Origin: an uncultured Actinomycetes bacterium
GTDB lineage: Bacteria; Actinomycetota; Thermoleophilia; UBA2241
Direction of reading: 5' to 3'
NCBI GenBank assembly: GCA_963764225.1
Contig: CAVXRL010000007.1
Coordinates: forward strand, 531,510 to 595,509
Length of the DNA stretch: 64,000 bases
Shown piece after piece: positions 1 through 45,327 of this stretch. The position numbers and the translations under genes are program-made. The notes below the pieces were generated by a model, which searched no databases, was not told the origin of the DNA, and saw nothing but the letters and a program-made list of their open reading frames with translations. Positions within the stretch are counted from its first letter, which is position 1; each line of letters opens with the position of its first letter.

Positions 1-450
1 CACGGAGATCTCGTGCGTGTCCATCTCGCTGAGGTAGTCGTTCAGCCGGGCGATGTCGCCGACGTCCTGGAGCGTGCACTCGCGGACCCGGCCGGTGTCC
101 ACGTCGACGACGGCGATGCCCTCGCTGAAGTTGGTGAAGGCGACCCGCCCCGGCTCCATGAGGAAGTCGTTCTTGGGGTCGCGGCCGCAGAGCACGTACT
201 TGCTCGGCGACGAGGCGATGGCCTCCTCGACGACGTGCGGCGGGATGCGTACCATGCGCGTCTCCGCGTCGATCGTGCAGCCGCCGTCCTTGAAGATGTC
301 CCGCGCGTCCTGGGCCTCGACGAACACGCCCGTGCGCTCGAGCACCTCGAGCGAAGCGAGGTGGATGTCGTCGAGCTCCGACTCGGTGAACACGTTCACG
401 CTCAGCCCGCGGCTGCGCATGCCGCCGGCGAAGAGGTTGCGCTTCACACC
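1..450 (-). CDS. MttB-superfamily (trimethylamine/quaternary-amine:corrinoid) methyltransferase, 5' part only; gene continues past window start
   Basis: Minus-strand translation of 1-450 gives GTG-KRNLFAGGMRSRGLSVNVFTESELDDIHLASLEVLERTGVFVEAQDARDIF..., typical of the MttB-family N-terminus. GGAGG lies 6 nt before the GTG at 450. The plus-strand ORF 13..471 is its shadow. Confidence 0.6.
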
Positions 451-496
451 GCTCCTCCTGGTAGGGATTGACGAGTCTTGACTGCCCGGCGCGCGA

Positions 497-1894
497 TCAT
501 GCGCGCGCGCCCAGCCCGGCGTGCTCCTGGAAGCGCGCCACGCTGTTGATGGGCACCTCGAGCACCTCGGCGATGCGGAACTTGGCTTCCATCGCCCCGG
601 CGTGCGTGGGGTACGTGAGCTCCTGCACGGGGACACGGCCGAGGCCGAGGTCGCGGCGCACGTCGTGCATGGCGATGGGGTCGGCGAGATCGGTGACGGA
701 GCAACCGAGCTTGCCGGCCACGTAGGTCTTGGCGTCGCTGAGGCGCATGCCCCGGGTCATCTGCATGCGGCCCACCAGATCTCCGGTGGTCCGCATCCCG
801 CCCATGCCCGAAGCGAGCGCGTGGGTGCACGCCATGCCCAGCGGGTCACCCACGCCCACCTACAACCCGTCGCACTTGAGGATGTCGACGAGCGCGCGGG
901 AGACGCGTGACACGGCGTCCGCCGGCGGGTAGGGGCTCATCGGCACGCCGCCGACCCCCATGCCGACGTTGGGGTGCACGGGGATCTCCGCGACCGCCAT
1001 CGCCGGCTTGATGATGGCGCACGCCCGGGCCACGTTCCAGGCGATCGACTTGGTGGTGTTGACGTTGACGGCCGGCCCGAACATCGTCGCGCCGGCCTCC
1101 TGGGCGACCTCGAGCTGCGCCTTGGGCCACATGCCGGCGAGCCGCTTGCCCTTGTAGGTGAGCTCGCCGTGCATGCCCAGCACACACTCGCTCGCCATGC
1201 CGAGCTCGATGCCGATGTCGGGGTAGCGACCCTTGATGGTCTCGACGGCGGTCAGGGTCGCCAGGAAGTCGCCGTCGCCCGCGGCGCCGGCGGTGTCGAA
1301 GTCCATGCCGTCGGCGCCGGCCTCCCACATGCCCTCGGCGACGAACACCATGTCGCGGACCGCGTGGTCGATGGCCGCCACTTGCGCGTCGCGCGCCTCG
1401 TCGATCTTGCCGAGCGGCATGAGCTCCGACCAGTTCGGGATGGGCCCGTCGGGCATGGAGTAGCGGCCCAGGTCCGGCATCGCGCCGTATTGGCAGGGCG
1501 CGATGAGGTTGAGCTGGGCCACCTTCATCGCCTGTGCCTCGAAGCTCAGGATGGTCTTGATGGCCTTGTACGAGTAGTCGATGGCGAACAGCTCGAGCAT
1601 GTCCGCTCCGCGGTGGCTCTGGTAGCTGTAGAGCTCGTCCACCCGGGTGCCGGAGTCGAGGTTGCCGGAGCCGTCGAAGCTGAGGCAGACCTCGTCGCCC
1701 ATGTCCACCGCGCTGAACTTCGACTCGCTCGAGAAGATGTCCAGCAGGTGGTCGATCTCCGCCTCGGAGAGCGGAGAGGCCTTCGCGCGGCGGGCCCCGA
1801 GCGCGGAGCCTGCCACCAGGTCTTCGCGGATCTCCGCCGGAGTCATCTCGACGAGCCCACCGTCGCCGAGGCGCGTACGTACAGGTCGCTCCAC
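497..1894 (-). CDS. mtbB: Dimethylamine:corrinoid methyltransferase MtbB, copy 1, with in-frame UAG (pyrrolysine) codon at 860-862
   Basis: ORFs 860..1894 and 497..859 are in the same frame, separated only by TAG. The junction reads ...[45 protein letters not shown], matching the MtbB Pyl site (...[14 protein letters not shown]...). Conserved motifs are present across the 465 aa (RLGDG, YGAMPDLG, GADGMDFDTAGAAGDGDF, GMHGELTYKGKRLAG, FGPAVNVNTTKS, VGGVPM). Start is GTG at 1894 and the final stop is TGA. Confidence 0.85.
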
Positions 1895-1923
1895 TTCAGC
1901 ACCCCCGATGGCCGTCCTGAGCG

Positions 1924-1943
1924 ATTAGTTAGTTGTGTAACTA
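1924..1943. promoter_or_regulatory. Candidate TetR operator, inverted repeat TTAGTTA-gttgtg-TAACTAA, 30 bp upstream of mtbB1 start, in the mtbB1/tetR divergent region
   Basis: Inverted repeat seen directly in the sequence. An almost identical site lies upstream of mtbB2. Confidence 0.5.
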
Positions 1944-2110
1944 ATTGGTGAGGTAGACTACCAGACGCGATTGGGGTGTCAAGGAGACGCGGATGCCGAT
2001 CCGGCGGCCGGCGCGCGGTGGTCTGGCTCGCCGGCCGCGCAATCCGGTAAGGTGCGCATCGATGAGAAAGCGGGCCGTGCTGCGGCGCCCGCGGGAGACG
2101 CGAGGGAGGG

Positions 2111-2743
2111 GTGGCGGGCTTGACCAGGTACGAGCTTCCGTTCGACGATCCCACCCCCGACCTGTCGCCGACGGCGGCCAGGATCCTGGAGGCGGCCAGG
2201 CAGGTCCTCTCGAGGGACGGGTTACGGGGGCTCACGTTCGAGATCATCGCCCGGCAGGCGGGAGAGAACCCGGCCCTGATCCGCTACCACTTCGGCAGCA
2301 AGGCCGGGCTCCTGTCCGCGCTCGTGGACTCCGTGCTCTACCAGGAGGCCGTGGAGCTCGTCGAGCGACTCACGGACGTGCCCGCCGGCGACGAGCGGCG
2401 CGCCCGGCTGCTCGACCTGCACGAAGGGCTGCCGGAGGACACGGACGCGTACCGCAACTTCTTCGAGCTGATCCCGCACATCCTGCGCGACGAAGAGCTC
2501 CGGCCGCACCTGCGCGGCCTGTTCGACTGGTACCGCAAGCTGGACGCGTGGGCGCTCAAGGACGCCGGCGCCACGGAGCCGGCGGCGCACATCGCGCCCC
2601 TGGCGCTGCTCACGGTGGCGATCGCCGACGGCATCGCGCTGCAGAAGCTGGCCGACCCGGGCCTGGACTTCGAGCCGGCCTTCGCGCTGTGGCGCCGGCT
2701 CGTCCTCGGCCACGTGGAGTCGGGCGGCGAAGCAGCCGGCTGA
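2111..2743 (+). CDS. TetR/AcrR family transcriptional regulator
   Basis: N-terminal HTH with the TetR signature ...ILEAARQVLSRDGLRGLTFEIIARQAGENPALIRYHFGSKAGLL, followed by a helical ligand-binding domain. Divergent from mtbB1. Confidence 0.8.
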   Translation: MAGLTRYELPFDDPTPDLSPTAARILEAARQVLSRDGLRGLTFEIIARQAGENPALIRYHFGSKAGLLSALVDSVLYQEAVELVERLTDVPAGDERRARLLDLHEGLPEDTDAYRNFFELIPHILRDEELRPHLRGLFDWYRKLDAWALKDAGATEPAAHIAPLALLTVAIADGIALQKLADPGLDFEPAFALWRRLVLGHVESGGEAAG

Positions 2744-2820
2744 GCCCCCGGGGTCGGCCGCTGCTCCTGCGGCCGCCGGGGCGGCTGCTCGCGCGGCCGG
2801 CCGGGGCGGCCCCGTCCGTC

Positions 2821-4287
2821 TCAGCCGAGCTCGGCGTCGGCGGCGGCGCAGATCCTCGCCAGCTCCGCCGCCTTCCCCGCGTCGAGCGGCTCGGGCACGT
2901 AGTTCTCGAGGATGTCGAGCCCGCGCTCGCGCGCGACCTCCACGGGGTCGCGCAGGTGCGCGCCGTCCGGCCCGATCTCCTGCCCGATCGAGCGCTCGAC
3001 CGTCTCCTTCATGTGCCGGCGGGTGTGCGCCTGCCCCAAAAAGTGCCCGCCGGGCCCCACCGCGTCGATCACGTCGAGCGCCAGCTGCTCCTCGTCCAGC
3101 TCGAGGTCGCGGAACGCGCTCGCCGCGCGCCGGTAGAGGTCGTCGTCCAGCAGCAGGTGTTCGGGGGTGAACAGCTGGTACCGGTTGGTCAGCCCTATGG
3201 TGGTCATGAGTTCCGAGCCGACGATGCCGGCGAGCATGACGGTGTGCGCCGTCTCGGCCGCCGCCAGCCAGCTGCCCGGCAGGTCGTCGTCGGTGCCGGC
3301 GTACCCGGTCATCGCCGGCAGCCCGAAGTGGTGCACGAGCTCGCCGGGCAGGAACAGCCCCTTGTGGTTCAGCGGCGCCGTCGTGAGCGCCGCCGTCCGC
3401 GGGTCGGCGTGCACCGGCAGGGGGAAGAGGATCACGGGCGCCCCGGGGTGCGCCAGCTGCACGCACACCGTGGCGCTCACGAGCTCGGCGAAGCCCATGA
3501 CGAGGGCGCCGGCCTTGGTGGCCGGCGCCGTCGTCCCGTAGGTCGGCATGGTGACGAAGCACACGGGGACGCCGGCCTCGGCGAACACGAGCGCCGCCTC
3601 GATGCCGTCCCTGTCGTTGACGAGCGGCTGCACGGTGCCGATGAGGTTGCTCAGCGGGGGGCGGCGGCGCAGCCGCTCCGCCCCGCCCGCGACAACCGTC
3701 GCCATCTCGACCGCGTACCTCGCCTGGCGCTCACCCTGGACCATGCCCTGCAGGTGCTTGGCGGTGTTGTTCCAGGCCGCGTCGAGCTCGTGCAGCGTGT
3801 GCGTGTCGCCGGTGTCGGCGGCGGCCACGGTGGGCCACCAGAACTGCAGCGAGCCGAGGTAGTCGACCATGCGCGTGATCGCGGAGAGGTCGTCCTTGGT
3901 CGGCGCCCGGCGCAGCCCGGTGCGCCAGTCGACGACCTCGGTGCCGCAGCCGTTGGTGGTGTTGTACGTCTCGCCGCTGGAGAGGTCGAGGTCGAGGGTA
4001 CCGTCGCGCGACCCGAGCCGGAAGGTGCGCGGGGCTTCGGCCAGCGCTGCCGTCACGAGGTCGGGCGCGAAGCGCACGACGCCGGACGCGCGGTCCACCC
4101 GCGCACCGTGCCCGGCCAGGATGTCGAGCGCCTTGGGCGAGCCGAACCTGACCCCGGTGCGCTCGAGCACCAGCAGGACGGCCTCCTTGTAGCGGTCGAG
4201 CCTGGCGTCGTCGTAGAAGCGCACGGTGAAGTCCGAGCCGAGCGGCAGCAGCGGCTGCCGCCGGCTGAGATCGAGCTGAGAGGTCAT
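2821..4287 (-). CDS. MttB-superfamily methyltransferase (COG5598), non-pyrrolysine member with no in-frame stop; likely quaternary-amine or other methylamine:corrinoid methyltransferase
   Basis: 488 aa from MTSQLDLSRRQPLLPLGSDFTVRFYDD... to ...AADAELG. MttB-family motifs are present (GGHFLGQAHT, LFTPEHLLLDDD). The ATG overlaps the mtbB2 TGA (ATGA). The long ORF 2821..5136 in the track over-extends the N-terminus. Confidence 0.8.
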   Translation of the reverse strand: MTSQLDLSRRQPLLPLGSDFTVRFYDDARLDRYKEAVLLVLERTGVRFGSPKALDILAGHGARVDRASGVVRFAPDLVTAALAEAPRTFRLGSRDGTLDLDLSSGETYNTTNGCGTEVVDWRTGLRRAPTKDDLSAITRMVDYLGSLQFWWPTVAAADTGDTHTLHELDAAWNNTAKHLQGMVQGERQARYAVEMATVVAGGAERLRRRPPLSNLIGTVQPLVNDRDGIEAALVFAEAGVPVCFVTMPTYGTTAPATKAGALVMGFAELVSATVCVQLAHPGAPVILFPLPVHADPRTAALTTAPLNHKGLFLPGELVHHFGLPAMTGYAGTDDDLPGSWLAAAETAHTVMLAGIVGSELMTTIGLTNRYQLFTPEHLLLDDDLYRRAASAFRDLELDEEQLALDVIDAVGPGGHFLGQAHTRRHMKETVERSIGQEIGPDGAHLRDPVEVARERGLDILENYVPEPLDAGKAAELARICAAADAELG

Positions 4288-5681
4288 GCAGTCACCCCGA
4301 GCCCGGCGTTGGCCTTGAAGCGCTCCACCGAGTTGATCGGGATGTCCAGCACCTCGGCGATGTGGAACTTGGCCTCCATCGTGCCGGGGTGGTTCGGATA
4401 GGTGAGGTCCTGCACCTGCATACGCGCGAGGCCGAGGTCGCGCCTGAGGTCGTGCATGGCGATGGTGTCGCTGAGGTCGAGGACGGAACACCCGAGCTTG
4501 TCGGCGACGTACTGCTTGGCCTGCGGAAGGCGCAGGCCCCGGGTCAGTTGCATGCGAGCCACCAGATCTCCGGCGGTCCGCATCCCGCCCATGCCCGAGG
4601 CGAGCGCGTGTGACGAGGCCATCCCGAGGGGATCCCCGACCCCTACCTACAACCCGTCGATCTTGCAGATGTCGACCAGGGCTTTGGAGGCCCGGGACGT
4701 CGCGTCGACGGGCGGGTACGGGGTCATGGGCACGCCGCCGACCCCCATGCCGGCGTTCACGTGCACGGGGATCGTGGCCTCGGCGGTGACCGGCTTGATG
4801 AGCGCGCAGGAGCGCGCGGTGTTCCAGGCGAGCGACTTCGTCGTGTTCACGTTGACGGCCGGCCCGAAGATCGTGGCGCCGGCCGCCTCGCAGGCGCGGA
4901 GCTGGCCGAGCGGCCACTGGCCGGCCAGCCGCGTGCCCTCGTACTCGAGCTGTCCGTGCATGCCGAGCACGAGCTCGGAGGCCTGGCCGATCTCGATGCC
5001 GACGTCGGGATAGGCGTCGCGCAGCCGGCGGGCGACGCGCAGGGTGGCGAGCAGGTCGGCGTCGCCGGAGGCGCCGGCGGTGTCGAAGTCGAGCCCGTCC
5101 ACGCCGGCCTCGATCATGCCCTCCGCCACCAGCCACATGTCGTGCTCGAGGTGCCCGGCGGCCTCCTCCTGGGCGGCGCGCGCCTCCGCGATCTTGCCGA
5201 GCGGCATCAGCTGCGACCAGTTGGGCGCCGGGCCGTCGGGCTGCGAGTAGCGGCCCAGGTCCGGCATGGCCCCGTAGTTGAGCGGCACGACCGTCTGCTG
5301 CTGCGCGTCCTTGAGCATCTGCGTCTGGAACGGCAGCACGGTGCGCACGGCCTTGTACGAGTAGTCGTGGTGCCAGAGCTCGATCATGTCGGCGCCGTGG
5401 TGGTTCTGGTAGATGACCTGCTCGAGCACCGGTGAGGAGATGTCCGCGTTGCCGGAGCCGTCGAAGCTCAGGACGACCTCGTCGCCGTAGTCGACGGAGC
5501 TGAACCGGGCCGCGGAGCTGAAGATGTCCAGGAGGTGGGCGATCTCGTCGTCGCTCAGCGGTTCGACCTTGGCCCGCTTGACGGCCGCCTCCGAGCCGGC
5601 GTGCAGGTCGGCCTCGAGCTCCGCGCGCGTCAGCTCGGTCAGCGACCCGTCACCGAGCCGCGTCGGGATGCGGTGTGCCAT
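4284..5681 (-). CDS. mtbB: Dimethylamine:corrinoid methyltransferase MtbB, copy 2, with in-frame UAG (pyrrolysine) codon at 4647-4649
   Basis: ORF 4647..5681 ends at TAG 4647-4649 and the same frame continues as ...[41 protein letters not shown]... to TGA at 4284. About 70% identical to copy 1. RBS GGGAGG lies 5 nt before the ATG at 5681. Confidence 0.85.
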
Positions 5682-5717
5682 CGATCCTCCCGTCGTCCCC
5701 CCGAAGGGCGGTCGTCG

Positions 5718-5737
5718 TTAGTTAGTCGTATAACTAA
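5718..5737. promoter_or_regulatory. Candidate TetR operator, inverted repeat TTAGTTA-gtcgta-TAACTAA, 37 bp upstream of mtbB2 start
   Basis: Same half-sites and 6-nt spacer as the site at 1924-1943. Confidence 0.5.
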
Positions 5738-5825
5738 ACGAACCAGCCCTCGGACGATACCAGAAGCGGGCGCCGGGGTGTCAAGCGCACGGCGGCGGGA
5801 CGACGGGGGAACCGGAGGGCCGGCC

Positions 5826-6119
5826 TCAGAATTCCTCCGCCTCGGCGCCGGCCGGCGGCTCCTGCATGACGCCGTCCGCGTCCTGGCGCTCGGCGGCCAG
5901 TCGCTCGATGCGGTCGACGAGCTCGCGCGGAGCCTCTCCGCTGGAGAGCGCCTCACGGTCGACGGTCCACTGCCCCTGCTCGTCGAAGCGGCACGCCTCC
6001 CAGCCGCTCTCGCACACCTCCACGAGGCCCTCGCCGGTCAGCGGCAGCCCGAACTGCCGCCGGATGACCTCGGCGGCCTCGTCCACGCTGAGTCTGTCCT
6101 GTTCGAAATCCATCGTCAC
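5826..6119 (-). CDS. Hypothetical small acidic protein (97 aa)
   Basis: Intact ORF with GC3-rich codon usage. No recognisable domain. Confidence 0.4.
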   Translation of the reverse strand: MTMDFEQDRLSVDEAAEVIRRQFGLPLTGEGLVEVCESGWEACRFDEQGQWTVDREALSSGEAPRELVDRIERLAAERQDADGVMQEPPAGAEAEEF

Positions 6120-6245
6120 TCGTCCTCGCTCGCGGCCCGCGCGCTCAGCGGCGCGCCCTCACCCTCAGTCGTACCCGGCCGGACGGGCGCCGTGCGGGCA
6201 GGTGTGGCCGGGTGGGCGTGGCGCTGATGCCGTACCATTGACGGC

Positions 6246-7115
6246 ATGAGCGCCCACGCATCGCCCCAGTCGCTCTCCGTGACGTTCGCGGGACACTCGA
6301 CGGTGCTCCTGGACGTCGGCGGCGTGCGGCTGCTCACCGACCCGCTGCTGCGGCGGCGCGTCGGTGTGCTGATCCGGCGCGCCGCCGTCCCGGCGGCGGA
6401 GTTGCGGCGCGACCTCGACGCCGTGCTCATCTCCCACGCGCACCTCGACCACCTCGACGTCCCGTCGCTGCGCATGCTCGACCGGGACACCCCGGTCGTG
6501 GCGCCGCGCGGGGTCGGCAAGCTGCTGCGGCGCCAGGGGTTCGAGCCGGTCGAGCTCGAGGCGGGGGAAGAGGTCGAGCTCGCTGCTCGGCGGCAGGCCG
6601 GGGAGGAGGCGCATGCGCCGGTCACGGTGCGCGCCGTCCCGGCGTTCCACAGCGGCACGCGGTACCCGCTGGGCACGCCCTCGTCGGCTCTGGGCTACGT
6701 GGTCAGCGGCGCCCTGAGCGCCTACTTCGCCGGCGACACGGGCCTCTTCGACGGCATGCGGGAGCTCGGCCCCGTGGACGTCGCCGTGCTGCCGGTGGGC
6801 GGGTGGGGGCCGCGCCTGCCCGACGACCACCTCGGCCCCCTCTCGGCCGCGCGGGCGCTCCAGTTGCTGCGGCCGCGGGCCTGCGTGCCGGTGCACTGGG
6901 GCACGCTGTACCCGCCGTGGCTGCCGCCCGAGTTCAACGCGAAGTGGAGCGAGTGGCCGCGCGCGTTCGAGCGGTACGCGCGGCACCTGGCCCCCGACGT
7001 GGAGGTGCGCGTGCTGCCCCCGGGCGGCACGACGACGTTCACACCCGGGCAGACCATGCTCCCGGACGAGCCGGCGGCGCCCGTCGGCGAGCCGGCTCGG
7101 GACGGGTCCCCATGA
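6246..7115 (+). CDS. MBL-fold metallo-hydrolase
   Basis: HAHLDH metal-binding motif and a beta-lactamase-fold pattern. Confidence 0.75.
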   Translation: MSAHASPQSLSVTFAGHSTVLLDVGGVRLLTDPLLRRRVGVLIRRAAVPAAELRRDLDAVLISHAHLDHLDVPSLRMLDRDTPVVAPRGVGKLLRRQGFEPVELEAGEEVELAARRQAGEEAHAPVTVRAVPAFHSGTRYPLGTPSSALGYVVSGALSAYFAGDTGLFDGMRELGPVDVAVLPVGGWGPRLPDDHLGPLSAARALQLLRPRACVPVHWGTLYPPWLPPEFNAKWSEWPRAFERYARHLAPDVEVRVLPPGGTTTFTPGQTMLPDEPAAPVGEPARDGSP

Positions 7116-9553: not shown

Positions 9554-10561
9554 TCAATCGAACGCCCCCGCCGCCGCGCGGACGGCGGCCGTGACGATCC
9601 GGTCGGCGTTCTCCTTCTTGACGTGCACGCCGTCGTAGAACGCGTCCGGATCACCGTGGAAGCTCTCGATGCGGCTGTAGTCGAGCACCGCGATGCGGTA
9701 GTCGCGGGAGAGGAACCGCAGGAAGCGCAGCAGGCGCAGCCGGCGATCCTCCCAGGCCTGCTCGCCCATCGCCCGGATGACGTAGGGATGGGTGGGCATG
9801 ATCACCAGGACCGGCGTCACGCCGATGCTGTTGAAGAGCCCGAGCGTCATCGCGAAGTACTGCTGGTTGAGGCCCCAGGAGTCTCGCCGCTGCCCGGTGC
9901 CGTGGCGGTTGGCCAGCTGTGCGGCGACGTACTGTCGCAGGGACTGATCGAGCGTGCGGCCCTGCGACTCCAGGTAGTCGTACCAGTTGTTGGTCATCAG
10001 TCCGTTGGAGGCGAACTGGTCCGGAGACCAGAACAGCGGCAGGCCGAGCGCCACGTACGCGACCTGGTCGGGCACGGCCTCGTCGAGGAGCTTCTGCGGG
10101 AAGTAGCGCGCGAGACGCTTGTCCTGCAGCAGGCCCGGGTCGAGGACCTTCTGGTAGAAGACGGAGGGCTGGATCGCCCACAAGCAGTGGAGCTTGACCT
10201 TGGGCGCCCGCTCGAGGCAGGAGCAGGCGAGCGCCCACGCGTCGGTGGGGCGCCCGTTGGAGAAGGCCGCATTGAAGGTGCGCAGCCCCGTCTTGCGGCC
10301 CAGGAGGCTCGGGTCGAAGCGCGTGCCGCGCGACCCGCCGAACACGATGAGCTCCGGCGGGGCCTTCAGGTTGTCGATGAGGTCGAGCTTGTAGGTGCGA
10401 TCGGACGCGCGGTGGGCCGAGGCGGGCAGCGACGCCGGGGGCGTGGCGTGGGTGAGCGGGAGGTCCACGTGCCCGGCCGCGGGCGGGAACATGAGGATGA
10501 ACCCGACCGAGAGACGCGCGGCCAGCCTGCCGACCCGCCGTGAACCCCTGCGCCGGTCCAT
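9554..10561 (-). CDS. Hypothetical secreted protein (signal peptide, about 335 aa)
   Basis: Starts MDRRRGSRRVGRLAARLSVGFILMF...; hydrophobic N-terminus, no known domain. The track ORF over-extends the N-terminus. Confidence 0.55.
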   Translation of the reverse strand: MDRRRGSRRVGRLAARLSVGFILMFPPAAGHVDLPLTHATPPASLPASAHRASDRTYKLDLIDNLKAPPELIVFGGSRGTRFDPSLLGRKTGLRTFNAAFSNGRPTDAWALACSCLERAPKVKLHCLWAIQPSVFYQKVLDPGLLQDKRLARYFPQKLLDEAVPDQVAYVALGLPLFWSPDQFASNGLMTNNWYDYLESQGRTLDQSLRQYVAAQLANRHGTGQRRDSWGLNQQYFAMTLGLFNSIGVTPVLVIMPTHPYVIRAMGEQAWEDRRLRLLRFLRFLSRDYRIAVLDYSRIESFHGDPDAFYDGVHVKKENADRIVTAAVRAAAGAFD

Positions 10562-10744
10562 CCGCGCGCTCCCTCGAGTGTGGACTGTCTCCAGCGGCAG
10601 GATAGAGGCACGGCGGGGCGGGCGGCGGCAGCGCCGTTGACGAGGTAAGTAGGAGCGGGGTGACGACTGCGAGCCGTGACAGCGGGCCGTCACTCTCGGC
10701 GCTCCGGGGGAATGCGTGAAGTAGGCCACCGAGGAGGTGCTTCC

Positions 10745-10912
10745 ATGGGAGGCAAGACGGACGAGAGCAAGGGTCGCCTGGAGAAGGCCGCCGGAGAGTT
10801 GACCGGCGACGAGAAGCTCAAGCGAGAAGGAGACGTGGACAAGGCCAGCGGCAAGGTCAAGAAGACCACCGACAAGGTCGCGGACAAGGCCAAGGACACG
10901 CTGGACAAGTGA
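10745..10912 (+). CDS. CsbD-family general stress protein
   Basis: MGGKTDESKGRLEKAAGELTGDEKLKREGDVDKASGKVKK... is the CsbD signature. Confidence 0.7.
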   Translation: MGGKTDESKGRLEKAAGELTGDEKLKREGDVDKASGKVKKTTDKVADKAKDTLDK

Positions 10913-11036
10913 TCTGCCGCGAGCGCGGCAGTGGGTCGGGGCCCGGGGCGAGAGAGCGCCCCGGGCCCCGCAGTACGTGGGGCGAGCGCGGCGGCGATCC
11001 GGGAGCGCGGCCGGCCGCGGCCGGCCGGAAGGACCG

Positions 11037-11330
11037 TCAGGGCAACTGGTTCACGAGGCCGGCGAACTCCTCGGGCGTGAAGGCGCGGAGCGTCTGGGTC
11101 GTGACGTAGCCCTTGGCGGCGGTCGCCATCGACATGAGGGCCGCGAACTCGTCGCCCGGGCCTTCCGCCACCATCACGTAGTCGTAGGCGCCCATCGTGG
11201 CATGGAAGCTGAGCACCTTGCCGCCGGCGGCCTCTATCCCTTTGACGACCTCCTGGTACCGCGCCGGCCCGCCCTTGAGGTCGGCCAGCCCCTTCGCGGT
11301 CAGGTTCGAGAGTATGACGTACTGCGGCAT
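11037..11330 (-). CDS. GYD domain protein
   Basis: The 97-aa protein ending ...GAYDYVMVAEGPGDEFAALMSMATAAKGYV matches the GYD family. Confidence 0.7.
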   Translation of the reverse strand: MPQYVILSNLTAKGLADLKGGPARYQEVVKGIEAAGGKVLSFHATMGAYDYVMVAEGPGDEFAALMSMATAAKGYVTTQTLRAFTPEEFAGLVNQLP

Positions 11331-11584
11331 GGCGAACCTCCGTCGTAGCGGGGTCGCACCCCTGTGTGCGGCGCCCTCTCACGGAGTTCTAGCCCGGGCC
11401 GTGCAATCGGCAACCGTTGCGACCGAGCCGGCTTCTCCGAGAGAGTCCATCATCCAGGGGGCGGCAGGAGCGCGAGCACGGTGACCGCGAGCGGGGAGTC
11501 GAGCGCCGGGATCGTCGGCGCGGCGTCAACCCGCATGCCTCGATGCGTGGAGCGGCGGTCGGACGCCCTCTCCGTCCGTGCGGG

Positions 11585-13546: not shown

Positions 13547-13720
13547 GTCGTCCCGTCGCGGCGGGGAGGAGTGCTTCGGGCTGCCGGGGAGCCGATCCTG
13601 GATGGAGTGGCGGCGCCTCGTTCGCCCGCATTTGTGACACGATTCACCCAGAGGGATTATTATTGACGCAGTGAACGAAGGCTTGGGAGAGAAGAGAGTG
13701 GCGCTCACCTGGGTGACGGC

Positions 13721-14596
13721 ATGACCGAGGTCGGCATCGTCGCGGTCGTCAACCACGGGTTGCCGGAGCTGCGCACTGCGCTCCGGACCATCCGCGAGAC
13801 CGCTCCGCCCGAGGCGCAGCTGGCCGTGATCGCCCTCGACCTGGGGGACCATGAGGGCACCTACCTGCTGCGCCAGTACCTGCGCGGGCGCATCCACGCG
13901 GTGCAGTTCGACCACCGGCAGGACCACGGCTGCCACTGCGGCCTGGACCGCTCCGCACGCCTGGTGCGCGGCGACTACGTGGCGCGCGTCGACGACACGC
14001 TCCAGTTGAAGCCGGGCTGGGCAGAGAAGGCGGTCGCGGCGCTGGAGGCGGACCCGGGCATCGGCTGTCTCTCCCTCGTCCCCCCGAGCGACTATCAGCG
14101 AGGCCGCGGACGGCCGCGGACGGTGAACGTGGAGCCGATCGAGGTCGACCACCTCGACATGCGCTGCTTCGTGGTCCGGCGCGAGCTCCTGGCGCGGATC
14201 GGGTGCGGGGTCGCGGCCGGCCGGGAGGACGGCTGCGGGTTCCAGGAGGCGGTGCGCGCTCAGGGGCTCCGCCTCGCCTTCCTGCCGGGGCAGGCAAGCC
14301 CGCTCCGCAGCGTGGAGGTGCCGGCGGAGTACGACATCTGGCCGCTCGAAGAGGAGTTGCCGCCTCACGAAGGAGCGAGCGGCGCGCTCCAGCGTCTCGA
14401 GCAGGCGTATCAGCTCGGTGACGACGTGCTGCTCACGTGTCTCTCGTGCGGCGGCACGGAGCTCGAGACCATCGCCGCCCGCATCCGCTTCTGCGAGCGG
14501 CATCAGGTCGCCACCGGCTTCTGGTACGAGCTGCGCTGCCCCGAGTGCGGCGAGCTCCTCTACAAGGACGACTACCAGTTCCGGTGCCCCGACTGA
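13721..14596 (+). CDS. Glycosyltransferase family 2-like protein with C-terminal Cys-pair (zinc-ribbon-like) region
   Basis: N-terminus resembles a GT2 fold. C-terminus has CLSCGG...CERH and CPECG...CPD motifs. Confidence 0.45.
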   Translation: MTEVGIVAVVNHGLPELRTALRTIRETAPPEAQLAVIALDLGDHEGTYLLRQYLRGRIHAVQFDHRQDHGCHCGLDRSARLVRGDYVARVDDTLQLKPGWAEKAVAALEADPGIGCLSLVPPSDYQRGRGRPRTVNVEPIEVDHLDMRCFVVRRELLARIGCGVAAGREDGCGFQEAVRAQGLRLAFLPGQASPLRSVEVPAEYDIWPLEEELPPHEGASGALQRLEQAYQLGDDVLLTCLSCGGTELETIAARIRFCERHQVATGFWYELRCPECGELLYKDDYQFRCPD

Positions 14597-14687
14597 CCTC
14601 CTCCGCGATCAGCCGAGCGCTCCGCTACTTCGCCGCTTGATCTCGACACCAAGGCTCAGAGCCTGGCATGCCACGACGTGGGCCTCC

Positions 14688-15161
14688 TCAGAACGGCTTG
14701 GCGCTCATCGCCCACACGGTGACCGTCCAGGCCACGACGGCAATGCCGAGCGCCAGGGAGGCCGCAGCCGCCAGCCGACGGCTTCGGCGCCGCGCCGACA
14801 GCCAAATCAGCACCGTCCCCGCGATCAGCAGCAAGAAGCCGCCATCGGACGTGACGTAGCCGAGTACGACCCAGCCGGGATCCGAAGCGCCGTCTCCGAA
14901 CTCGCGCGAGCGGACCAGTTCGGCGCCGACGCGCATGACCACGTAGGAGGGAAGCGTCGCGAGCAGCAGGACGCGGAAGGCGAGGCGCCGCGACCAGACC
15001 GCCACGTCCGGACCGGAGAGAACCGCGATGTACGCCGCGGCCGCGGCTGCGCCGATGAGGGCGGCGGCGCCCGCTACGTGCAGGAGCAGAGGCAGGGCCA
15101 GATCGCCCGGCCGTCCGGCGGCGACCAGGGCGAAGAGGGCCGAGAGGATATCGGGCATCAT
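14688..15161 (-). CDS. Hypothetical integral membrane protein
   Basis: Several hydrophobic helices. Start MMPDILSALFAL overlaps the upstream stop (ATGA). Confidence 0.5.
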   Translation of the reverse strand: MMPDILSALFALVAAGRPGDLALPLLLHVAGAAALIGAAAAAAYIAVLSGPDVAVWSRRLAFRVLLLATLPSYVVMRVGAELVRSREFGDGASDPGWVVLGYVTSDGGFLLLIAGTVLIWLSARRRSRRLAAAASLALGIAVVAWTVTVWAMSAKPF

Positions 15162-16724: not shown

Positions 16725-17094
16725 CACCTCTTGACGCTCAAAGGCGGATCGCCTCTCCGCAGCCCGGGGGCCACCCAACTGCTTTCCGGGTTCCCGGGTC
16801 CTGCCCACGGAAACACCCCGCCGTGGGGCGCCCGGACGGGAAGGCGCTCGTCCTCGGGCGCGATGACGGCGGACGGACGACGACGGCGTCCCCTCATCGT
16901 GAACTCCGACGGTAGCGGCCTCTAGTGTGATGCGAGAGGCGGTGAGGAGGGAGCCGCAGCGGTTGCCGGAGTGAAGTGCCAGCCGTCCAGAGGGGGCCTC
17001 GTTTGCCACAGCACTTCAACGGGAAAGTAACTTTTCGTCCGAGATACCTCACCGTCGTCGTGTGGCGGAACGCGAAGCTGAGAGGGGTCCCACC

Positions 17095-17397
17095 ATGAAG
17101 AAGACCTTGATCGTGATGTCGGTCGTAGCCTTGGTCCTGGCCGTCATGGCCGTGCCGGTACTGGCGGCGCCAGGCGGCGCGCCGGCGGCGCACGGCGTCG
17201 ACGGCAAGACTTTCGGCGCGGCCGTGAGCGGGCTTGCTCAGAGCTCGCCCGGCGCCGTAGCCGCGCACGTGAGCGGCGGCAACTCCGGCGGCATGCCCGC
17301 CGCGCACGGACTCTCCGGCGCTGACTTCGGCGCCGCAGTCAGCGGCCTCGCGCAGAGCGCCCCGGGAGCCGTTGCAGCTCACGTCTCCGGCAAGTAG
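17095..17397 (+). CDS. Small secreted repeat protein (two copies of about 30 aa: FGAAVSGLAQS-PGAVAAHVSG)
   Basis: Signal peptide MKKTLIVMSVVALVLAVMAVPVLAAPG, then an internal tandem repeat. Confidence 0.5.
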   Translation: MKKTLIVMSVVALVLAVMAVPVLAAPGGAPAAHGVDGKTFGAAVSGLAQSSPGAVAAHVSGGNSGGMPAAHGLSGADFGAAVSGLAQSAPGAVAAHVSGK

Positions 17398-17522: not shown

Positions 17523-18506
17523 TCAGTGAGCCGGTTGCGGCATGATCGCGCGGTCGCTGAGGGTCTTCATGAAGGCGACGAGCGCCAGCTCCTCGCGCTT
17601 CGTCAGGCCGAGGTCACCGAGCTCGTCCGTGTTGACGGTCTCGGGCACTTCAGGCGCCGCCCAGCCTGCTCCCGCGACGTCGCGCGTGTTGTAGAAGTGC
17701 ACGATGTCGTAGAGCGTCGCGAAGTAGCCATTGTGGCCGTAGGGGCGGTTCCTGGCGACGTTGCGCAGCGTCGGCACCTTGAACTTGCCCATCTCGGCCA
17801 TCCAGACGGCGTCGTCGTACCCTGCCGCGTAGAGGAAGCCGCCGAGACCGAGGTCCACGTCGCTGCTCCCAGTCAGCGCTGCGATCGTGGGGTTCGCCGG
17901 GAGGCCGAGGTTGTCGTAGGTGTGGTCGGTGAACAGCGCTTTGCCCGCGGCGATGCCGGTCGAGTCCCTCGAGGGCTCGCTCAGGTGGCACAGGTTGCAC
18001 TTGGCCTTGCCGTTGAAGAGCTTGAGCCCCAGCTTCTGCTGCGCCGTGAGCGCGTCCCTCTGGCCCGCCATATACGAATCGAAGCGCGAGTTGAAGCGGT
18101 TGACGGAACTGGACGACTCGTAGGCGGCGATGGCGAGGGCCATGTCGTCGTAGGCTTGATCGACATCAGTCCAGTCCGTGTGCGGGAAGACCTGGAGGAA
18201 GAGGTCGGCGTAGTCGCTGGCGCCGATGTCCCGGATGACCTCGGCCTTGCTCGCGTTGTGCATCTCGACGGGGTTCAGGAAGGGACCTTGGGCCTGCTCG
18301 GCGAGCGGCGATCCGAGCGTCCAGCCGGTGGCGCGGCCGTCCCAGAACATGCCGCCGATCCAGAGGCCCTCCGCTTCGTCGAAGTACAAAATCGGGCTCC
18401 AGGCGGTGTAGGCCCAGGACGGACAGGATTGAGTAGCCCGTTCGGACAACGCCCCGCCGGGTCGGCCTGCCGCCGGCCCGGCGGGCGGCAACGGCCCGAA
18501 CCCCAC
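17523..18506 (-). CDS. Cytochrome c peroxidase (CCP/MauG) family protein; only the second haem motif (CNLCH) is in frame, so the 5' region is possibly frameshifted
   Basis: ...FNGKAKCNLCHLSEP...PTLRNVARNRPYGHNGYFATLYDIVHFYN matches the CCP C-terminal haem domain. Confidence 0.6.
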   Translation of the reverse strand: MGFGPLPPAGPAAGRPGGALSERATQSCPSWAYTAWSPILYFDEAEGLWIGGMFWDGRATGWTLGSPLAEQAQGPFLNPVEMHNASKAEVIRDIGASDYADLFLQVFPHTDWTDVDQAYDDMALAIAAYESSSSVNRFNSRFDSYMAGQRDALTAQQKLGLKLFNGKAKCNLCHLSEPSRDSTGIAAGKALFTDHTYDNLGLPANPTIAALTGSSDVDLGLGGFLYAAGYDDAVWMAEMGKFKVPTLRNVARNRPYGHNGYFATLYDIVHFYNTRDVAGAGWAAPEVPETVNTDELGDLGLTKREELALVAFMKTLSDRAIMPQPAH

Positions 18507-18550
18507 GAGCCCCTCCGCTCGGGGTAGGAACGGTCCGTGAGAGGAGGGCC

Positions 18551-18826
18551 ATGATGAGTGATCTGCTGTCCCTGAACGAGGTGCGCAGCCTCCAGCGTCC
18601 GGCGCTGTTCATCGACTTCGGAGAGAAGCTGCTGTACCACGACGAGCGGTTGTTCGACCTGACGCCCGAAGCCCCCGGCAGGCCTCCCGACTACTCACCG
18701 GTCATGCTGCCCGCGCAGGTGCTCGACTTGGGGGTCGGCATCGAGTTCGGTTGGCGCCACCTGGCGGAGTGCGACTGCGACCACTGCCGCTCCCTGCGCG
18801 CCCGCCGCGGGCGGCACGCCGCCTGA
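18551..18826 (+). CDS. Hypothetical protein (91 aa) with CDCDHC motif
   Basis: Strong RBS GAGGAGGG lies 4 nt before ATGATG. GC3-rich codon usage. Confidence 0.45.
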   Translation: MMSDLLSLNEVRSLQRPALFIDFGEKLLYHDERLFDLTPEAPGRPPDYSPVMLPAQVLDLGVGIEFGWRHLAECDCDHCRSLRARRGRHAA

Positions 18827-18949
18827 CGACCGGGGAGTCGCTTTCCGGCAGCGCGGCGTGTTCACGGCGAGGAATCGAGGAAGCGGCAACAGGGAGGGCG
18901 CCCTGGGGCGCCCTTTCGCTTCTCTCGCGGCCACGGCGGTCGCGTCGAT

Positions 18950-21007
18950 CACTTGGCCGGGCACTTGGAGGGGCTCACGGGGATCTGCATGATAACGGCC
19001 CTTCGAGCTGATCTCCGTCGATCGTGATCTTGGTCCCCGTCTTGGGCAGGATGACGCTGCCGTACGGGTTCTCCATGTCGTAGTAGGTCTCGGGTCGTTG
19101 AAGGTCCGCACGGCCGGCAGGCTCTGGTACTTGACGGCCGCTGTTGTAGTGCAGCGTGATGCCGTCGGTCCGGGACAGCGTGAAGGTCGAGTCGTAGCTC
19201 TGGACGCGGTTTCGCCAGACGCACCGTCGGGGCACTTGAGCGCCTCGGGATGCGCGTCGACGGCAGGAGGAGGCCCTGCCCGGGGGCTCGGGACGGTGTT
19301 GTTGTTGGCCGTAGGTGTCCCAGTAGTTGATCAGCAGGCCGTCCTGGTACGGGAAGTGGTCGACGAGTTCCGCCGAGGTCGGGATTGTTCAGATAGCCGA
19401 AGTGGTACGGACCGACCTTCAGCGTGGAGTCGTAGCCCCTGTACGTGCGGTACTCGGCCACGTAGTACTGGCTGTACAGCTTGCTCCTCGGTGCCGGTCG
19501 TGACGCGGAAGCCGTTGGCGTAGGTCCAGCCGGCGTCGGTCTCGGCGCCGTCGAGTCGGCTATCCGGTGATGTTGATGTCGTCGACCATGAACCCGGCGT
19601 AGTTGACGCCGCCGTCGCTCCGGTACTGGAAGCCGAGGAGGACGTGCCTGCTGGCGAGAGGTTCGCGGTCAGGTCGACCCAGCCGCTCGAGAAGCCCTCG
19701 ATGCTGTTCGCCTCGACGCGTCGAGTTCGAGAGGTTGGTCGGGACCGTCTGCCAGGTCGCGCCGCCGTCGGTCGAGGCGATCAGGTTGGCGTAGTCGTAG
19801 CCCTGCTCGATGCCGTAGTTGACCTTGGCGCTGAGCGTCGCCCCGGCGGCCGAGCGTGAACGCCTTGGTCATGTTGTTGTTGAGGTTGTTGGCGGAGCCG
19901 CTGAAGTAGAACTTGGACCCGCGTAGGGAGCGCCGATGTCGGCAGTCACCGGCTTCTTCGGCAGGACGACGAACAGGCCCTGCGCCTGCTTGGTGTTGAA
20001 CTCCATCGGGCCGAGCTCGGTACTCGCGATTTCGGCCTGCACGGGCCACCTCGTAGTTGAGCCAGCCGAGCTGGAACTTCTCCCAGGCGCCCATGTGCCC
20101 CGGCTTGGTGCCGATGTCTCGTTGCCGTCGCCCATCCAGGAGCCGGAGGACATGAGCGTCCAGAACCCGGTGCCGTTCTCGCCCGAGGTGTCGTACAGGT
20201 CCGGGCAGGCCCAGGTCGTGGCCGAACTCGTGGGTGAAGACGCCCACGCCGCCGTTCTCGGGCTGGATAGTGTACTTGCCGACCCAGTAGTCGCTGTCCC
20301 CGATCTGGATGCCGCCGAGCTTGTTGAACGGCGCGGGCCGGTCTTGTCGATGTCGGGTAGTTGGCGTACCAGCTGTGGCTCCAGATGCGTCGGCGCCGAG
20401 CGCGCCGCCGCCGGCCTCCTCGCCCTCGCCCGCGTGCACCGACTGGAAGGTGTCGATGTAGCCGTCGGGCTCGTCGAAGTTGCCGTCGCCGTCGTAGTCG
20501 TAGCGGTCGCAGCGGTCGAACTGCGCCAGGTACGCGTCGATCTGGGCGGGCGTCTTGCCGGCCGCGATCTGTCGTCGTACCAGCCGTCGGCCATGTCCTG
20601 GAGGAAGAACCAGACGTTCGTCGAGGTGCCTGTCCGGGTTGTCGTCGTAGTGGAGGTCGCCAGGGCACGGTGACCCAGTCGGTCGCGTCGCCGTCCACGC
20701 TGTAGCGGCCGGAGGACTGCTCGATGTAGAAGTTGCCCATCGAGTTCACGCCGGGCGAGTCGTCGTAGAGCAGTTTGTTGAAGTAGTCGCGGCTGAAGTC
20801 CTGCATCCAGATCGTGGTGTTGTCGACGGCGCGGTCCGGCTCGGCGATGCTGTTGTGCTGGAAGTCCGTGAACTCGCCGAGGAGCGTCCAGACCGGGTCC
20901 TCGCCCTCGAGCTCGAGCTGGACGTACTGGCCCTCGGCGACCTCGACGACGCCGCCCTTGTCTTGCCGTAGCTTGCCCTTGAGCTTCTTCTCGAGGGCGG
21001 CCTGCAT
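18950..21007 (-). pseudogene. M6 (immune inhibitor A-like) zinc metallopeptidase gene disrupted by multiple frameshifts
   Basis: Homologous segments alternate among three minus-strand frames: ...TLLGEFTDFQHNSIAEPDRAVDNTTIWMQDFSRDYF..., ...VFTHEFGHDLGLP (HEXXH)..., ...DLYDTSGENGTGFWTLMSSGSWMGDGNE..., ...GAWEKFQLGWLNYEVA... and a C-terminal piece. Confidence 0.6.
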
Positions 21008-21469
21008 CAGCGCCGCCTGCTTGACCGCGAGCGGACTGTGACGATCATCTTTCTTGACGTGCCTGGTCCGCGCGTCGGAGGCGCCGTCGAGTCGGCTACC
21101 GCAGGCGAGCCCACACCAGGCGCGGCACTACAGCAGCAGCGGCAGTAACGCGAACAGCACGAGACTGAAGCAGCTTTACTGACATGTAGGAACCCCCTTC
21201 TGTCCCTCGTGTGCAGCTCGGGCAGGACCTGCGCGGTACCGGGTCCACGAATACACCCCGGGGGGTACCAGCGCAAGCTTGGGCCGGGTGCTCCGCCTGC
21301 CCGCCTGGGCCTTCTTGTAGTCAAGCTGGCAACGGCGCCCGGCCCGCCGGCTCGCGCCTCCGCCTGGAGCGGCCTCAGCCCCTCGCGATGGTGACGCCGC
21401 GCGCCTCGGCCATCCACCTGACGGGCCGGCGCGGGCAGCCGACACCGGCTCTTACTGCGTCCGGCGCCC

Positions 21470-29367: not shown

Positions 29368-30675
29368 TCAGCAGAGGTCGTCGACGGCGGCGCCGTCCGG
29401 CAGGCCGCTGGTCACCGGCTCCGCCGGCACGTGCCCGGCCCGCCGCGCCCGCGCCGCGCGGAGCGCCTCGAGCGCCGCCGGGAACGGCTGCAGCGCCCGG
29501 TCGAAGATGCCGAGGCTGAAGGCGATGACGAGCCCGTAGTTGGTGATCGGCACGCCTTGCTGGCGGCAGCGCAGGATGCGTCCCAGCATCGCCCTGCGGT
29601 TGAACGTGCAGGCGCCGCAGTGGATGACGAGGTCCCACTTCGAGAGGTCCGCGGGGAAGTCGTGTCCCTGCATGTGCTCGATCTCCAGCTTGCCGCCCAC
29701 GTACTGCGTGAGCCAGCGCGGGATCTTGACGCGCCCGATGTCCTCGGCGATGGGGTGGTGGCTGCAGGCCTCGGCGATGAGGATCCTGGCGCCGCTCCTG
29801 AGGTCGTCGACCGCGAGCGTGCCCTCCACCTGGCTCACCAGGTCGCCCTTGAAGCGGCTGAAGAGGATGCTGAAGCTCGTCATCGGCACCTCCGGCGGCG
29901 TGTCGGCCGCCACCTTGAGGAAGGCCTGGGAGTCGGTGACCACGAGCTTGGGCGGCCGGTTGAGCCGCTCGATGGCGTTGCGCAGCTCCCGCTCCTTGAC
30001 CACCAGCGCCATCGCGTCGCTGTCCATGAGGTCGCGGATGCTCTGCACCTGCGGCAGGATCAGGCGCCCGCGCGGCGCCTCCTTGTCGATGGGCACCACG
30101 AGCACGGCGAGCTCGCCGGTGTTGACCAGGTCGCCGAGGATCGACGGGTTGTCGATGAAGTCCGGCGGCGCCGCGTCGAGCAGCGCCTGGCGGAAGTCGA
30201 GCACGCCGCGGCCCTCGCTCGCGGCGGTCAGGACGGGCTTGAGCTTGAGCTCCTCCAGGCGCCTGACCGGCGCCGGCCGGTCCACGAGGTCGCTCTTGTT
30301 GAAGACGACGACGATGGGCGTCTCGCGCTCGAGGAACTCGTCGAGGATGCCGTCCTCGTACTCGCCCCAGCTGCCCGCCTCGGTGACCAGCACGCCGAGG
30401 TCGGTGCGGTCGAACACCTGCGTGGTCTTCTTCGCCCGCAGCTCGCCCAGTACGCCGACGTCGTCGATGCCGGCGGTGTCGATGAAGAGGACCGGGCCGA
30501 GGGGCAGCAGTTCCATCGGCTTCTCGACCGGATCGGTGGTGGTGCCGGCGAAGTCGCTGACGATGCTGACCTCCTGCCGGGTGATGGCGTTGAGCAGGCT
30601 CGACTTGCCGACGTTGCGGCGGCCGAAGATCCCGATGTGGAGGCGCATGCCCTTGGGTGCGTCCATCAGGCCCAT
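29368..30675 (-). CDS. hydF: [FeFe]-hydrogenase maturation GTPase HydF
   Basis: GRRNVGKSSL P-loop, DTAG, NKSD and a C-terminal CxH...HCGAC FeS-binding region. Confidence 0.85.
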   Translation of the reverse strand: MGLMDAPKGMRLHIGIFGRRNVGKSSLLNAITRQEVSIVSDFAGTTTDPVEKPMELLPLGPVLFIDTAGIDDVGVLGELRAKKTTQVFDRTDLGVLVTEAGSWGEYEDGILDEFLERETPIVVVFNKSDLVDRPAPVRRLEELKLKPVLTAASEGRGVLDFRQALLDAAPPDFIDNPSILGDLVNTGELAVLVVPIDKEAPRGRLILPQVQSIRDLMDSDAMALVVKERELRNAIERLNRPPKLVVTDSQAFLKVAADTPPEVPMTSFSILFSRFKGDLVSQVEGTLAVDDLRSGARILIAEACSHHPIAEDIGRVKIPRWLTQYVGGKLEIEHMQGHDFPADLSKWDLVIHCGACTFNRRAMLGRILRCRQQGVPITNYGLVIAFSLGIFDRALQPFPAALEALRAARARRAGHVPAEPVTSGLPDGAAVDDLC

Positions 30676-30695
30676 GCGGAGGTCCTTTCGGTGCT

Positions 30696-32078: not shown

Positions 32079-32128
32079 GGCGACCTCACCGAGCAGGTCG
32101 TGTTCGCTAGCGCGTGTCGCTCATGGGC

Positions 32129-32393
32129 TCAGGGATGGCCGAACACCATCTTCTGGACGTGCACGCCCTCGATCGCGTCGAGCTTGTCGACCATCGTCTG
32201 CGCCGCGGCCTCGTCGCCGAAGAACTCGATCAGCACGATGCCGCTCGGTGAGCAGAAGGACGCGTCGACGTCGTGGAGCCCGACGCGCGTCTTGATGTTG
32301 CAGCCGTACTCGGTGAAGACGGCCTGCACGTCGCGCGCCTCCTGCAGCCTGTCGCGTGACGTGGATGCCGAGGATGATGTGGTCGTCGCTCAC
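32129..32393 (-). CDS. TM1266-like putative [FeFe]-hydrogenase system regulator (ACT-like small protein); apparent frameshift near 32355
   Basis: N-terminus MSDDHIILGIHV in one frame (ORF 32121..32393). Remainder ...DRLQEARDVQAVFTEYGCNIKTRVGLHDV...KMVFGHP in the adjacent frame (ORF 32129..32329). Confidence 0.55.
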
Positions 32394-32451
32394 GCTGGCC
32401 CTCCGTGGTCGTGGTCGTGGCTGGCTGGTCGTGCGCTCGCGGCGTGCCGGC

Positions 32452-33855: not shown

Positions 33856-33860
33856 GGAAC

Positions 33861-35228: not shown

Positions 35229-35298
35229 GTGTACCTCGTGCGGGCGGCCGGGCTGCCCTGAGTCGGGTCAGCCCGGCCGCCGCTGGTCTTGCGTCAGG

Positions 35299-37233: not shown

Positions 37234-37246
37234 TCCTCCGCTCTCG

Positions 37247-38443: not shown

Positions 38444-38446
38444 CGC

Positions 38447-38947: not shown

Positions 38948-38958
38948 CTGGAGTCCTC

Positions 38959-40933: not shown

Positions 40934-40935
40934 GA

Positions 40936-42990: not shown

Positions 42991-43008
42991 GGCACTGCCA
43001 CCGTCACG

Positions 43009-43416: not shown

Positions 43417-43537
43417 GCTCCGCCTTCAGTATAGATGCTGCGTCTTCTTCGGCGGCGGCCCGGGCGGCCCCGGTCTCCCGGGGCCGCCCTGGGGCGCGCC
43501 GCCCACGCGCCCGGCCGCCGTCTTGCTCAGACGCGTC

Positions 43538-45316: not shown

Positions 45317-45327
45317 GCTCTCCTTGC

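Follow-up and report, generated by a model that had tools for sequence, protein, structure and literature searches.

Several known systems stand close to the cluster described here. In Methanosarcina, the genes for trimethylamine and dimethylamine demethylation form the operon mtbC-mttB-mttC-mttP(QS)-mtbB (MM_1687-MM_1693; Paul et al. 2000, as described in bioRxiv 10.64898/2025.12.02.691841); in M. mazei, transcription joins mttB and mtbB, and their presence in one cluster is the canonical Methanosarcina arrangement (bioRxiv 10.64898/2025.12.02.691841). In Eubacterium limosum, the MtqC/MtqA system relies on a corrinoid protein, MtqC, that is common to the methyltransferases MtpB, MtcB and MtyB (PMC12155760, PMC8604678). 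Furthermore, pyrrolysine (Pyl)-type mttB and mtbB genes and their expression have already been reported for metagenome-assembled genomes (MAGs) of Actinobacteriota (PMC10805028), and PylRS has been found in Actinobacteria (PMC9630628). Here we examined a 64-kb stretch of DNA of ~70% G+C (hereafter the window, meaning the whole stretch analysed) from a soil bacterium of the class Thermoleophilia that is uncultured and probably anaerobic. Its positions 1-5,700 hold a methyltransferase cluster, with four methyltransferase genes on the minus strand and one regulator gene on the plus strand.

We consider it likely, with a probability of roughly 80%, that this region represents the larger part of a cluster of two operons under TetR control for the corrinoid-dependent demethylation of methylated amines, in which five methyltransferases (MT1 enzymes) share one corrinoid protein. 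Operon A would consist of mtbB2 followed by mttB-like2, and operon B of mtbB1, a Pyl-type mttB, the gene for a corrinoid protein of 208 residues and mttB-like3, with the window cutting operon B inside mttB. MttB would remove a methyl group from trimethylamine, and MtbB1 and MtbB2 would do so from dimethylamine; each of these three enzymes would contain a UAG-encoded pyrrolysine and methylate the Co(I) form of the cluster's single corrinoid protein. The two MttB paralogs without pyrrolysine (non-Pyl) would pass methyl groups of a further methylated amine to this same corrinoid protein. By binding TTAGTTA-N6-TAACTAA just downstream of both promoters, TetR would switch all five methyltransferases together, while a methylcorrinoid:tetrahydrofolate methyltransferase, a reductive activase and pylTSBCD would be encoded elsewhere in the genome.

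This arrangement resembles the Methanosarcina operon in that Pyl-type mttB and mtbB are co-located, and presumably co-expressed, with a corrinoid protein gene and, in the relatives L001, L004, L011 and L020 introduced below, with a transporter gene in the cluster. It differs in having one corrinoid gene, whereas Methanosarcina has two dedicated ones (MttC and MtbC), and in carrying two mtbB paralogs together with two additional non-Pyl MttB paralogs. Moreover, regulation would fall to a bacterial TetR repressor and its palindromic operator rather than to AmzR, the permease of this group belongs to the APC family rather than being a DME-family MttP, and the methyl acceptor is presumably tetrahydrofolate instead of coenzyme M. 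With the E. limosum system the locus has in common several MttB-superfamily MT1 enzymes, a single corrinoid protein that would serve all of them and a bacterial setting in which methyl transfer is presumably linked to tetrahydrofolate. However, the E. limosum system has no pyrrolysine enzymes and acts on acidic quaternary amines, whereas the paralogs of this locus belong to a separate clade and are without the residues that bind the acid group in MtgB. MtgB itself, the glycine betaine methyltransferase of Desulfitobacterium hafniense (DSY3156; PDB 2qne, 9yce), is like mttB-like2 a non-Pyl member of PF06253, with Leu where mttB-like2 has Thr at the Pyl-equivalent position.

The Actinobacteriota MAGs of Stordalen Mire (PMC10805028) belong to the same phylum, carry the same gene types and also contain non-Pyl MttB; two of our loci, L016 and L018, belong to palsa MAGs from a site of this type. 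That survey covered gene presence and expression, whereas the operon layout, the shared corrinoid gene and the TetR operator are described here. Hundreds of near-identical homologs of this lineage occur in soil metagenomes. The cluster documents how pyrrolysine-dependent tri- and dimethylamine demethylation may be laid out in abundant uncultured soil Thermoleophilia, with five genes for methyltransferases, a single corrinoid protein and the same TetR operator at each of the two promoters. In soils and peat, such a lineage could be a competitor of methylotrophic methanogens for the methylamines available there.

The edge-cut operon and its probable corrinoid gene

The genes of the cluster lie as follows in the window.

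1-447, minus strand: mttB, Pyl-type trimethylamine:corrinoid methyltransferase, 5' 149 codons, cut by the window edge
497-1894, minus strand: mtbB1, dimethylamine:corrinoid methyltransferase, 465 residues including Pyl, in-frame TAG at 860-862
2111-2743, plus strand: TetR-family regulator (PF00440, E=6e-11, and PF17940), divergent from mtbB1 and convergent with mttB-like2
2821-4287, minus strand: mttB-like2, non-Pyl MttB-superfamily methyltransferase, 488 residues (PF06253, E=1e-55, residues 22-486)
4284-5681, minus strand: mtbB2, dimethylamine:corrinoid methyltransferase, 465 residues including Pyl, in-frame TAG at 4647-4649

Scanning species-representative genomes with MtbB1 returned 20 loci (L001-L020), nearly all of them in MAGs of uncultured Thermoleophilia/Actinomycetota from soil and peat. 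A further locus, L021 (ENA contig ERZ25039483:contig_4089), was found by an exact-protein look-up with the 344-residue N-terminal part of mtbB2; the same kind of look-up with the 488 residues of mttB-like2 gave no record. Over 15.7 kb, L021 matches the window with 99.1% identity (L021 1-15682 corresponding to window 15691-1), and it extends 5.35 kb beyond window coordinate 1.

The gene that follows mtbB1 is a member of the MttB family, as a first-pass annotation of the window had stated (PF06253, E=5e-20; TIGR02369, 169.5 bits over 132 residues). Its start is the GTG at 445-447, preceded by a AGGAGGAG ribosome-binding site, and the gap to the mtbB1 stop is 49 nucleotides (nt) and not 46 as annotated. 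The window ends 535 nt short of the mttB Pyl codon, and the Pyl status of the partial gene is thus invisible within it. Its product has 100% amino-acid identity to the first 149 residues of the L021 MttB, a protein of 492 residues with an in-frame TAG at codon 328 (SFVAGL-TAG-SDSKLGDAQ). The latter scores 681 bits against TIGR02369, well above the cutoff of 525, and its gene matches Rfam PYLIS_3 with 73.4 bits, above the gathering score. At the Pyl codon, TAG is found in 15 of 15 MttB homologs (L021 and 14 orthologs), with the 3' frame conserved.

In L021, a gene for a corrinoid protein of 208 residues follows (16732-17358), 17 nt past the mttB stop and behind GAGGAGG. The protein contains PF02607 and PF02310, that is, the B12-binding_2 cap and the B12-binding Rossmann domain, and has its DxHxxG motif in the form GDLHDIGKNLV. 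Its stop codon overlaps (TGATG) the start of mttB-like3, the third MttB-family gene. Placed from L021, the start of the corrinoid gene would fall ~1.05 kb outside the window, past coordinate 1. Within the window, neither tblastn with this neighbouring corrinoid protein nor a scan for the motif DxHxxG...SxL...GG found any corrinoid gene of the MtxC type.

The first-pass annotation was therefore right that the window holds no corrinoid protein. It had taken this as a sign of a previously undescribed pairing, while naming a corrinoid gene just outside the window, in the same operon, as the finding that would speak against it; such a gene is what L021 contains, and the apparent anomaly of the operon mostly reflects where the window was cut. 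The annotation's other suggestion, a shared corrinoid partner, is essentially borne out by one corrinoid gene for five MT1 genes under one common operator.

The same order, namely mtbB2, mttB-like2, tetR (on the opposite strand), mtbB1, mttB(Pyl), the corrinoid gene where it occurs, an APC permease gene in some loci and mttB-like3, recurs in L001-L015, L020 and L021. The corrinoid gene is intact in L005, L009, L010 and L021, is also present in L007 and L011, and has a single frameshift in L001 (~13345), L004, L013 and L020. These single frameshifts in long-read MAG contigs are probably assembly indels, not biology. The same probably holds for a single frameshift at ~11800 in the L021 copy of mttB-like2, which is intact in the window.

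Predicted pyrrolysine codons, paralogs and the putative shared operator

MtbB1 and MtbB2 are 67% identical to each other, and in both of them the two halves are matched by Pfam Dimeth_Pyl (PF09505), with the break at profile position 354. MtbB membership was decided by the NCBIfam equivalog TIGR02368 (cutoff 369.1 bits), with the halves joined by an X at the TAG. The joined proteins exceed this cutoff (417.5 bits for MtbB1 and 404.3 bits for MtbB2), while the N-terminal half alone, at 309 bits, stays below it. At each of the two TAG codons begins a match to the mtbB pyrrolysine insertion sequence of Rfam, PYLIS_2, above its gathering score of 36.

763-862, minus strand: Rfam PYLIS_2 (mtbB pyrrolysine insertion sequence), beginning at the mtbB1 TAG, 62.6 bits
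4550-4649, minus strand: Rfam PYLIS_2, beginning at the mtbB2 TAG, 67.2 bits

The TAG is kept at the Pyl site in all 38 MtbB homologs, and the reading frame beyond it is likewise conserved. Such strict conservation of the codon and of the frame that follows makes read-through by far the likeliest reading, and we predict that UAG is decoded as pyrrolysine in these genes. A search of the PDB with MtbB returned no relative of solved structure.

Several relatives carry extra mtbB paralogs that are ~60% identical to MtbB1 and MtbB2, every one of them with the Pyl-site TAG (context DGY-TAG-VGTGDPLGM). They lie at 18150-19547 in L001, 19495-21030 in L005, 17443-18882 in L006, 17655-19253 in L008, and 18218-19603 and 20093-21031 in L009; L019 has three copies. 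In L005, L006, L008 and L009 they adjoin ABC-transporter genes. Lineages with extra paralogs have three to four or more dimethylamine methyltransferase genes each.

The tetR gene lies between the two gene pairs, a position that is conserved in L001-L015 and L021. The inverted repeat TTAGTTA-N6-TAACTAA has exactly two matches in the window, against none expected by chance, and each copy has a promoter-like pair, TTGACA/TAnnnT, on one side and an mtbB start on the other.

1925-1944, no strand: operator O1, TTAGTTA-N6-TAACTAA, intergenic between the divergent genes tetR and mtbB1, after the putative -10 element and before the start of mtbB1
1955-1982, minus strand: putative mtbB1 promoter, TTGACA at 1977-1982, 16-nt spacer, TAGTCT at 1955-1960, read by eye
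5718-5737, no strand: operator O2, TTAGTTA-N6-TAACTAA, upstream of mtbB2
5754-5784, minus strand: putative mtbB2 promoter, TTGACA at 5779-5784, 19-nt spacer, TATCGT at 5754-5759, read by eye

Across 27 sites in 13 loci and the window, the 7-nt arms of the operator are invariant, whereas the 6-nt spacer occurs in 12 variants and the flanks vary too. The TTGACAC box of mtbB1 is also conserved in relatives. An operator at both promoters, together with the divergent tetR, points to one repressor for both operons.

The second gene of operon A agrees with its first description: mttB-like2 starts with an ATG that shares nucleotides with the TGA stop of mtbB2 (GCATGACC), and the open reading frame (ORF), with a G+C content at third codon positions (GC3) of 0.98, has neither an internal stop nor an in-frame TAG. 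Its paralog mttB-like3, read from L021, encodes 500 residues, likewise without TAG, and is 63% identical to it. Both proteins have Thr at the Pyl-equivalent position (ACC in mttB-like2), and both fail the TIGR02369 cutoff of 525 bits, with 272 bits for mttB-like2 and 289 for mttB-like3. Their identity to D. hafniense MtgB and to the cluster's Pyl-MttB is 27-32% (27-28% for mttB-like2), and MtgB is also the best solved-structure match of mttB-like2 (E=4e-44).

In MtgB, glycine betaine is bound by Y97, R312, H348 and F356 (PMC13080624). The aligned residues are C/M/T/Y in mttB-like2 and C/L/T/Y in mttB-like3, and the loss of both carboxylate-binding residues, R312 and H348, argues against an acidic betaine held in the manner of MtgB. 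With the glycine-betaine-binding residues replaced, three of the four being counted as different in mttB-like2, we rejected the two paralogs as MtgB orthologs; mttB-like2 was also rejected as a Pyl-type MttB, given its 272 bits against 525, the missing in-frame TAG and the Thr at the Pyl position. In a comparison that covered MtgB and the Pyl-type MttB and drew on equivalog scores, pairwise identity and the substrate residues of MtgB, mttB-like2 and mttB-like3 are placed in a clade without a characterised member.

This clade is large in soil metagenomes. Its distant members P0036 and P0104 are orphan genes whose neighbourhoods contain neither corrinoid nor mtbB genes and give no clue to the substrate. 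Within the cluster, the paralogs may use the cluster's own corrinoid protein, as their co-location and co-regulation suggest and for which MtqC offers a precedent. The substrate of this co-regulated pair of non-Pyl MttB enzymes is directly testable.

In another contig (L023, 402 kb), three copies of the same non-Pyl MttB clade were found within 21 kb (10001-11458, 19939-21458). They have no corrinoid, mtbB or mttB(Pyl) neighbours, and one copy directly precedes a DNA_alkylation (PF08713) gene.

Weighing the alternatives

Several observations weigh against a pyrrolysine-dependent cluster with one repressor and one corrinoid protein. In the window and the 21 loci L001-L021, ARAGORN did not find tRNA-Pyl (pylT), and tblastn with the catalytic domain of M. 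mazei PylRS, a query validated against the PDB, did not find PylS (no match below E=6); nor did the same loci or the window contain a gene for an MT2 (methylcorrinoid-to-acceptor methyltransferase) or an activase. A scan of 1-6300 for consensus promoters and terminators called nothing, including the promoters read by hand, and it is from position and conservation only that we infer the binding of TetR to the palindrome. Furthermore, the corrinoid gene is seen only in the 99.1%-identical L021 and in relatives, the window itself ending inside mttB, and at the same position, between mttB and mttB-like3, it is missing in four of 14 related loci (L006, L008, L012 and L015). The corrinoid protein also falls below every NCBIfam equivalog cutoff (223.7 bits against 370 for MtgC_2, 191.9 against 350 for MtbC (NF041607) and 186.9 against 215.3 for TIGR02370), so that its methyltransferase partner is not established by these scores. 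A search for its homologs gave at least 120 matches; among the matches listed, all were at least 86% identical and no paralogous context pointed to MT2, activase or pyl genes.

The missing pylT and pylS would fit a bacterium that does not decode UAG as pyrrolysine and in which the mtbB and mttB genes with an internal TAG would be pseudogenes or give truncated products. The use of TAG as an ordinary stop elsewhere in the window points the same way: among 47 confidently called genes, the mtbB halves being excluded, TGA ends 38, TAG ~6 and TAA 3, and the amber codon has thus not been purged from the genome. However, the ordinary use of TAG as a stop is known from Pyl-decoding bacteria. Moreover, the TAG sits exactly at the Pyl codon in every MtbB and MttB homolog compared, the 3' frame is unbroken and in register, has a high GC3 and encodes a conserved protein sequence, and only the joined halves pass the equivalog cutoffs. 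The reported expression of such genes in Actinobacteriota (PMC10805028) and the occurrence of PylRS in Actinobacteria (PMC9630628) also speak for decoding. With the codon and the 3' frame perfectly conserved, we rejected the pseudogene reading, which we find hardly credible. Scarcely stronger, and in our view very improbable, is the new architecture that the first-pass annotation had proposed, in which a non-Pyl, quaternary-amine-type MttB homolog takes the place of MtbB's corrinoid partner or is paired specifically with MtbB in a cluster that encodes no corrinoid protein. The window without a corrinoid gene and the four related loci whose clusters lack one are in its favour, and the claim that each mtbB is followed by a non-Pyl MttB gene is correct for mtbB2 and mttB-like2, whose adjacency is conserved in at least 14 related MAGs. 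It does not hold for mtbB1, whose partner is a true Pyl-type mttB with a TAG in L021 and 14 orthologs, followed by the corrinoid gene in the same operon in L021 and nine other relatives. In addition, the MttB-family proteins match PF06253 only and have no B12-binding domain, and the last ~20 codons of the corrinoid gene, ~90% identical, are kept in L008 (12921-12980) and L015 (10651-10707), a C-terminal remnant of 20 residues that indicates a recent deletion and hence secondary loss.

A third possibility concerns the non-Pyl paralogs, which might act on a non-acidic quaternary or tertiary methylammonium (e.g., tetramethylammonium or another trimethylammonium) and release a product that enters the MttB and MtbB steps, all onto one corrinoid protein, with the coupling of mtbB2 to mttB-like2 reflecting consecutive steps. 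The two paralogs stand under the same operator as mtbB and mttB, the ATGA overlap couples mttB-like2 to mtbB2, and the replacement of the MtgB carboxylate-binding R312 and H348 (PMC13080624) by M or L and T, respectively, suggests that the clade may bind something other than the acidic quaternary amines that are so far the only substrates of characterised non-Pyl MttB enzymes (PMC12155760). On the other hand, the overlap is not kept in relatives, where gaps of 8-55 nt separate the two genes, and the other members of the clade are orphans without mtbB or corrinoid neighbours; co-regulation alone shows no metabolic link. We therefore regard such a sequential cascade as unlikely. It is rather improbable, too, that the paralogs demethylate tetramethylammonium, choline-like amines or even trimethylamine without pyrrolysine, in which case the regulon would amount to a full, step-by-step N-demethylation cascade that an abundant actinobacterial lineage of soil runs on just one corrinoid protein.

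We thus favour the two-operon cluster with five methyltransferases and one corrinoid protein. Relatives whose clusters lack the corrinoid gene must use one encoded elsewhere in their genomes. The window's own lineage, as represented by L021, most probably does not depend on a corrinoid protein encoded outside the cluster.

Transporters, related layouts and neighbouring genes

In some relatives, a gene for an APC-family permease of the amino-acid type (PF13520, tested on the L019 copy) lies between the corrinoid gene and mttB-like3. It was found in L001 (~13560-15100), L004 (~13800-15080), L011, L020 and L019 (1959-3497); in the distant loci L018 and L019 it adjoins mtbB copies, and it is absent from the window's lineage (L021). 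This permease is a candidate methylamine transporter.

The locus of a more distant Actinomycetes MAG, L014, carries between 10001 and 19000 an mtbB(Pyl) and an mttB(Pyl) gene, a saccharopine-dehydrogenase-like gene, a gene for an SBP_bac_5 binding protein and two non-Pyl MttB genes, with no corrinoid gene within 10 kb. The clustering of Pyl and non-Pyl MttB genes thus recurs beyond the genus of the window.

Directly upstream of the mtbB2 promoter, the window contains an ORF of 97 residues (5826-6119, minus strand) without a Pfam or NCBIfam match. The ORF is found in L021 and apparently absent from the closest species-level relative, L001.

Farther along the minus strand lie two sets of genes for HydABC-type [FeFe]-hydrogenases (35299-38947 and 43538-49307), a gene for a sensory hydrogenase-like protein fused to HisKA/HATPase (40936-42990) and the maturase genes for HydF (29368-30675) and a HydG/HydE-like radical SAM protein (32452-33798). 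Genes for response regulators are interspersed among these hydrogenase genes (29368-49307, minus strand). Such a set of [FeFe]-hydrogenase and maturase genes suggests that the bacterium lives anaerobically and metabolises hydrogen, a lifestyle that would be compatible with Co(I) chemistry.

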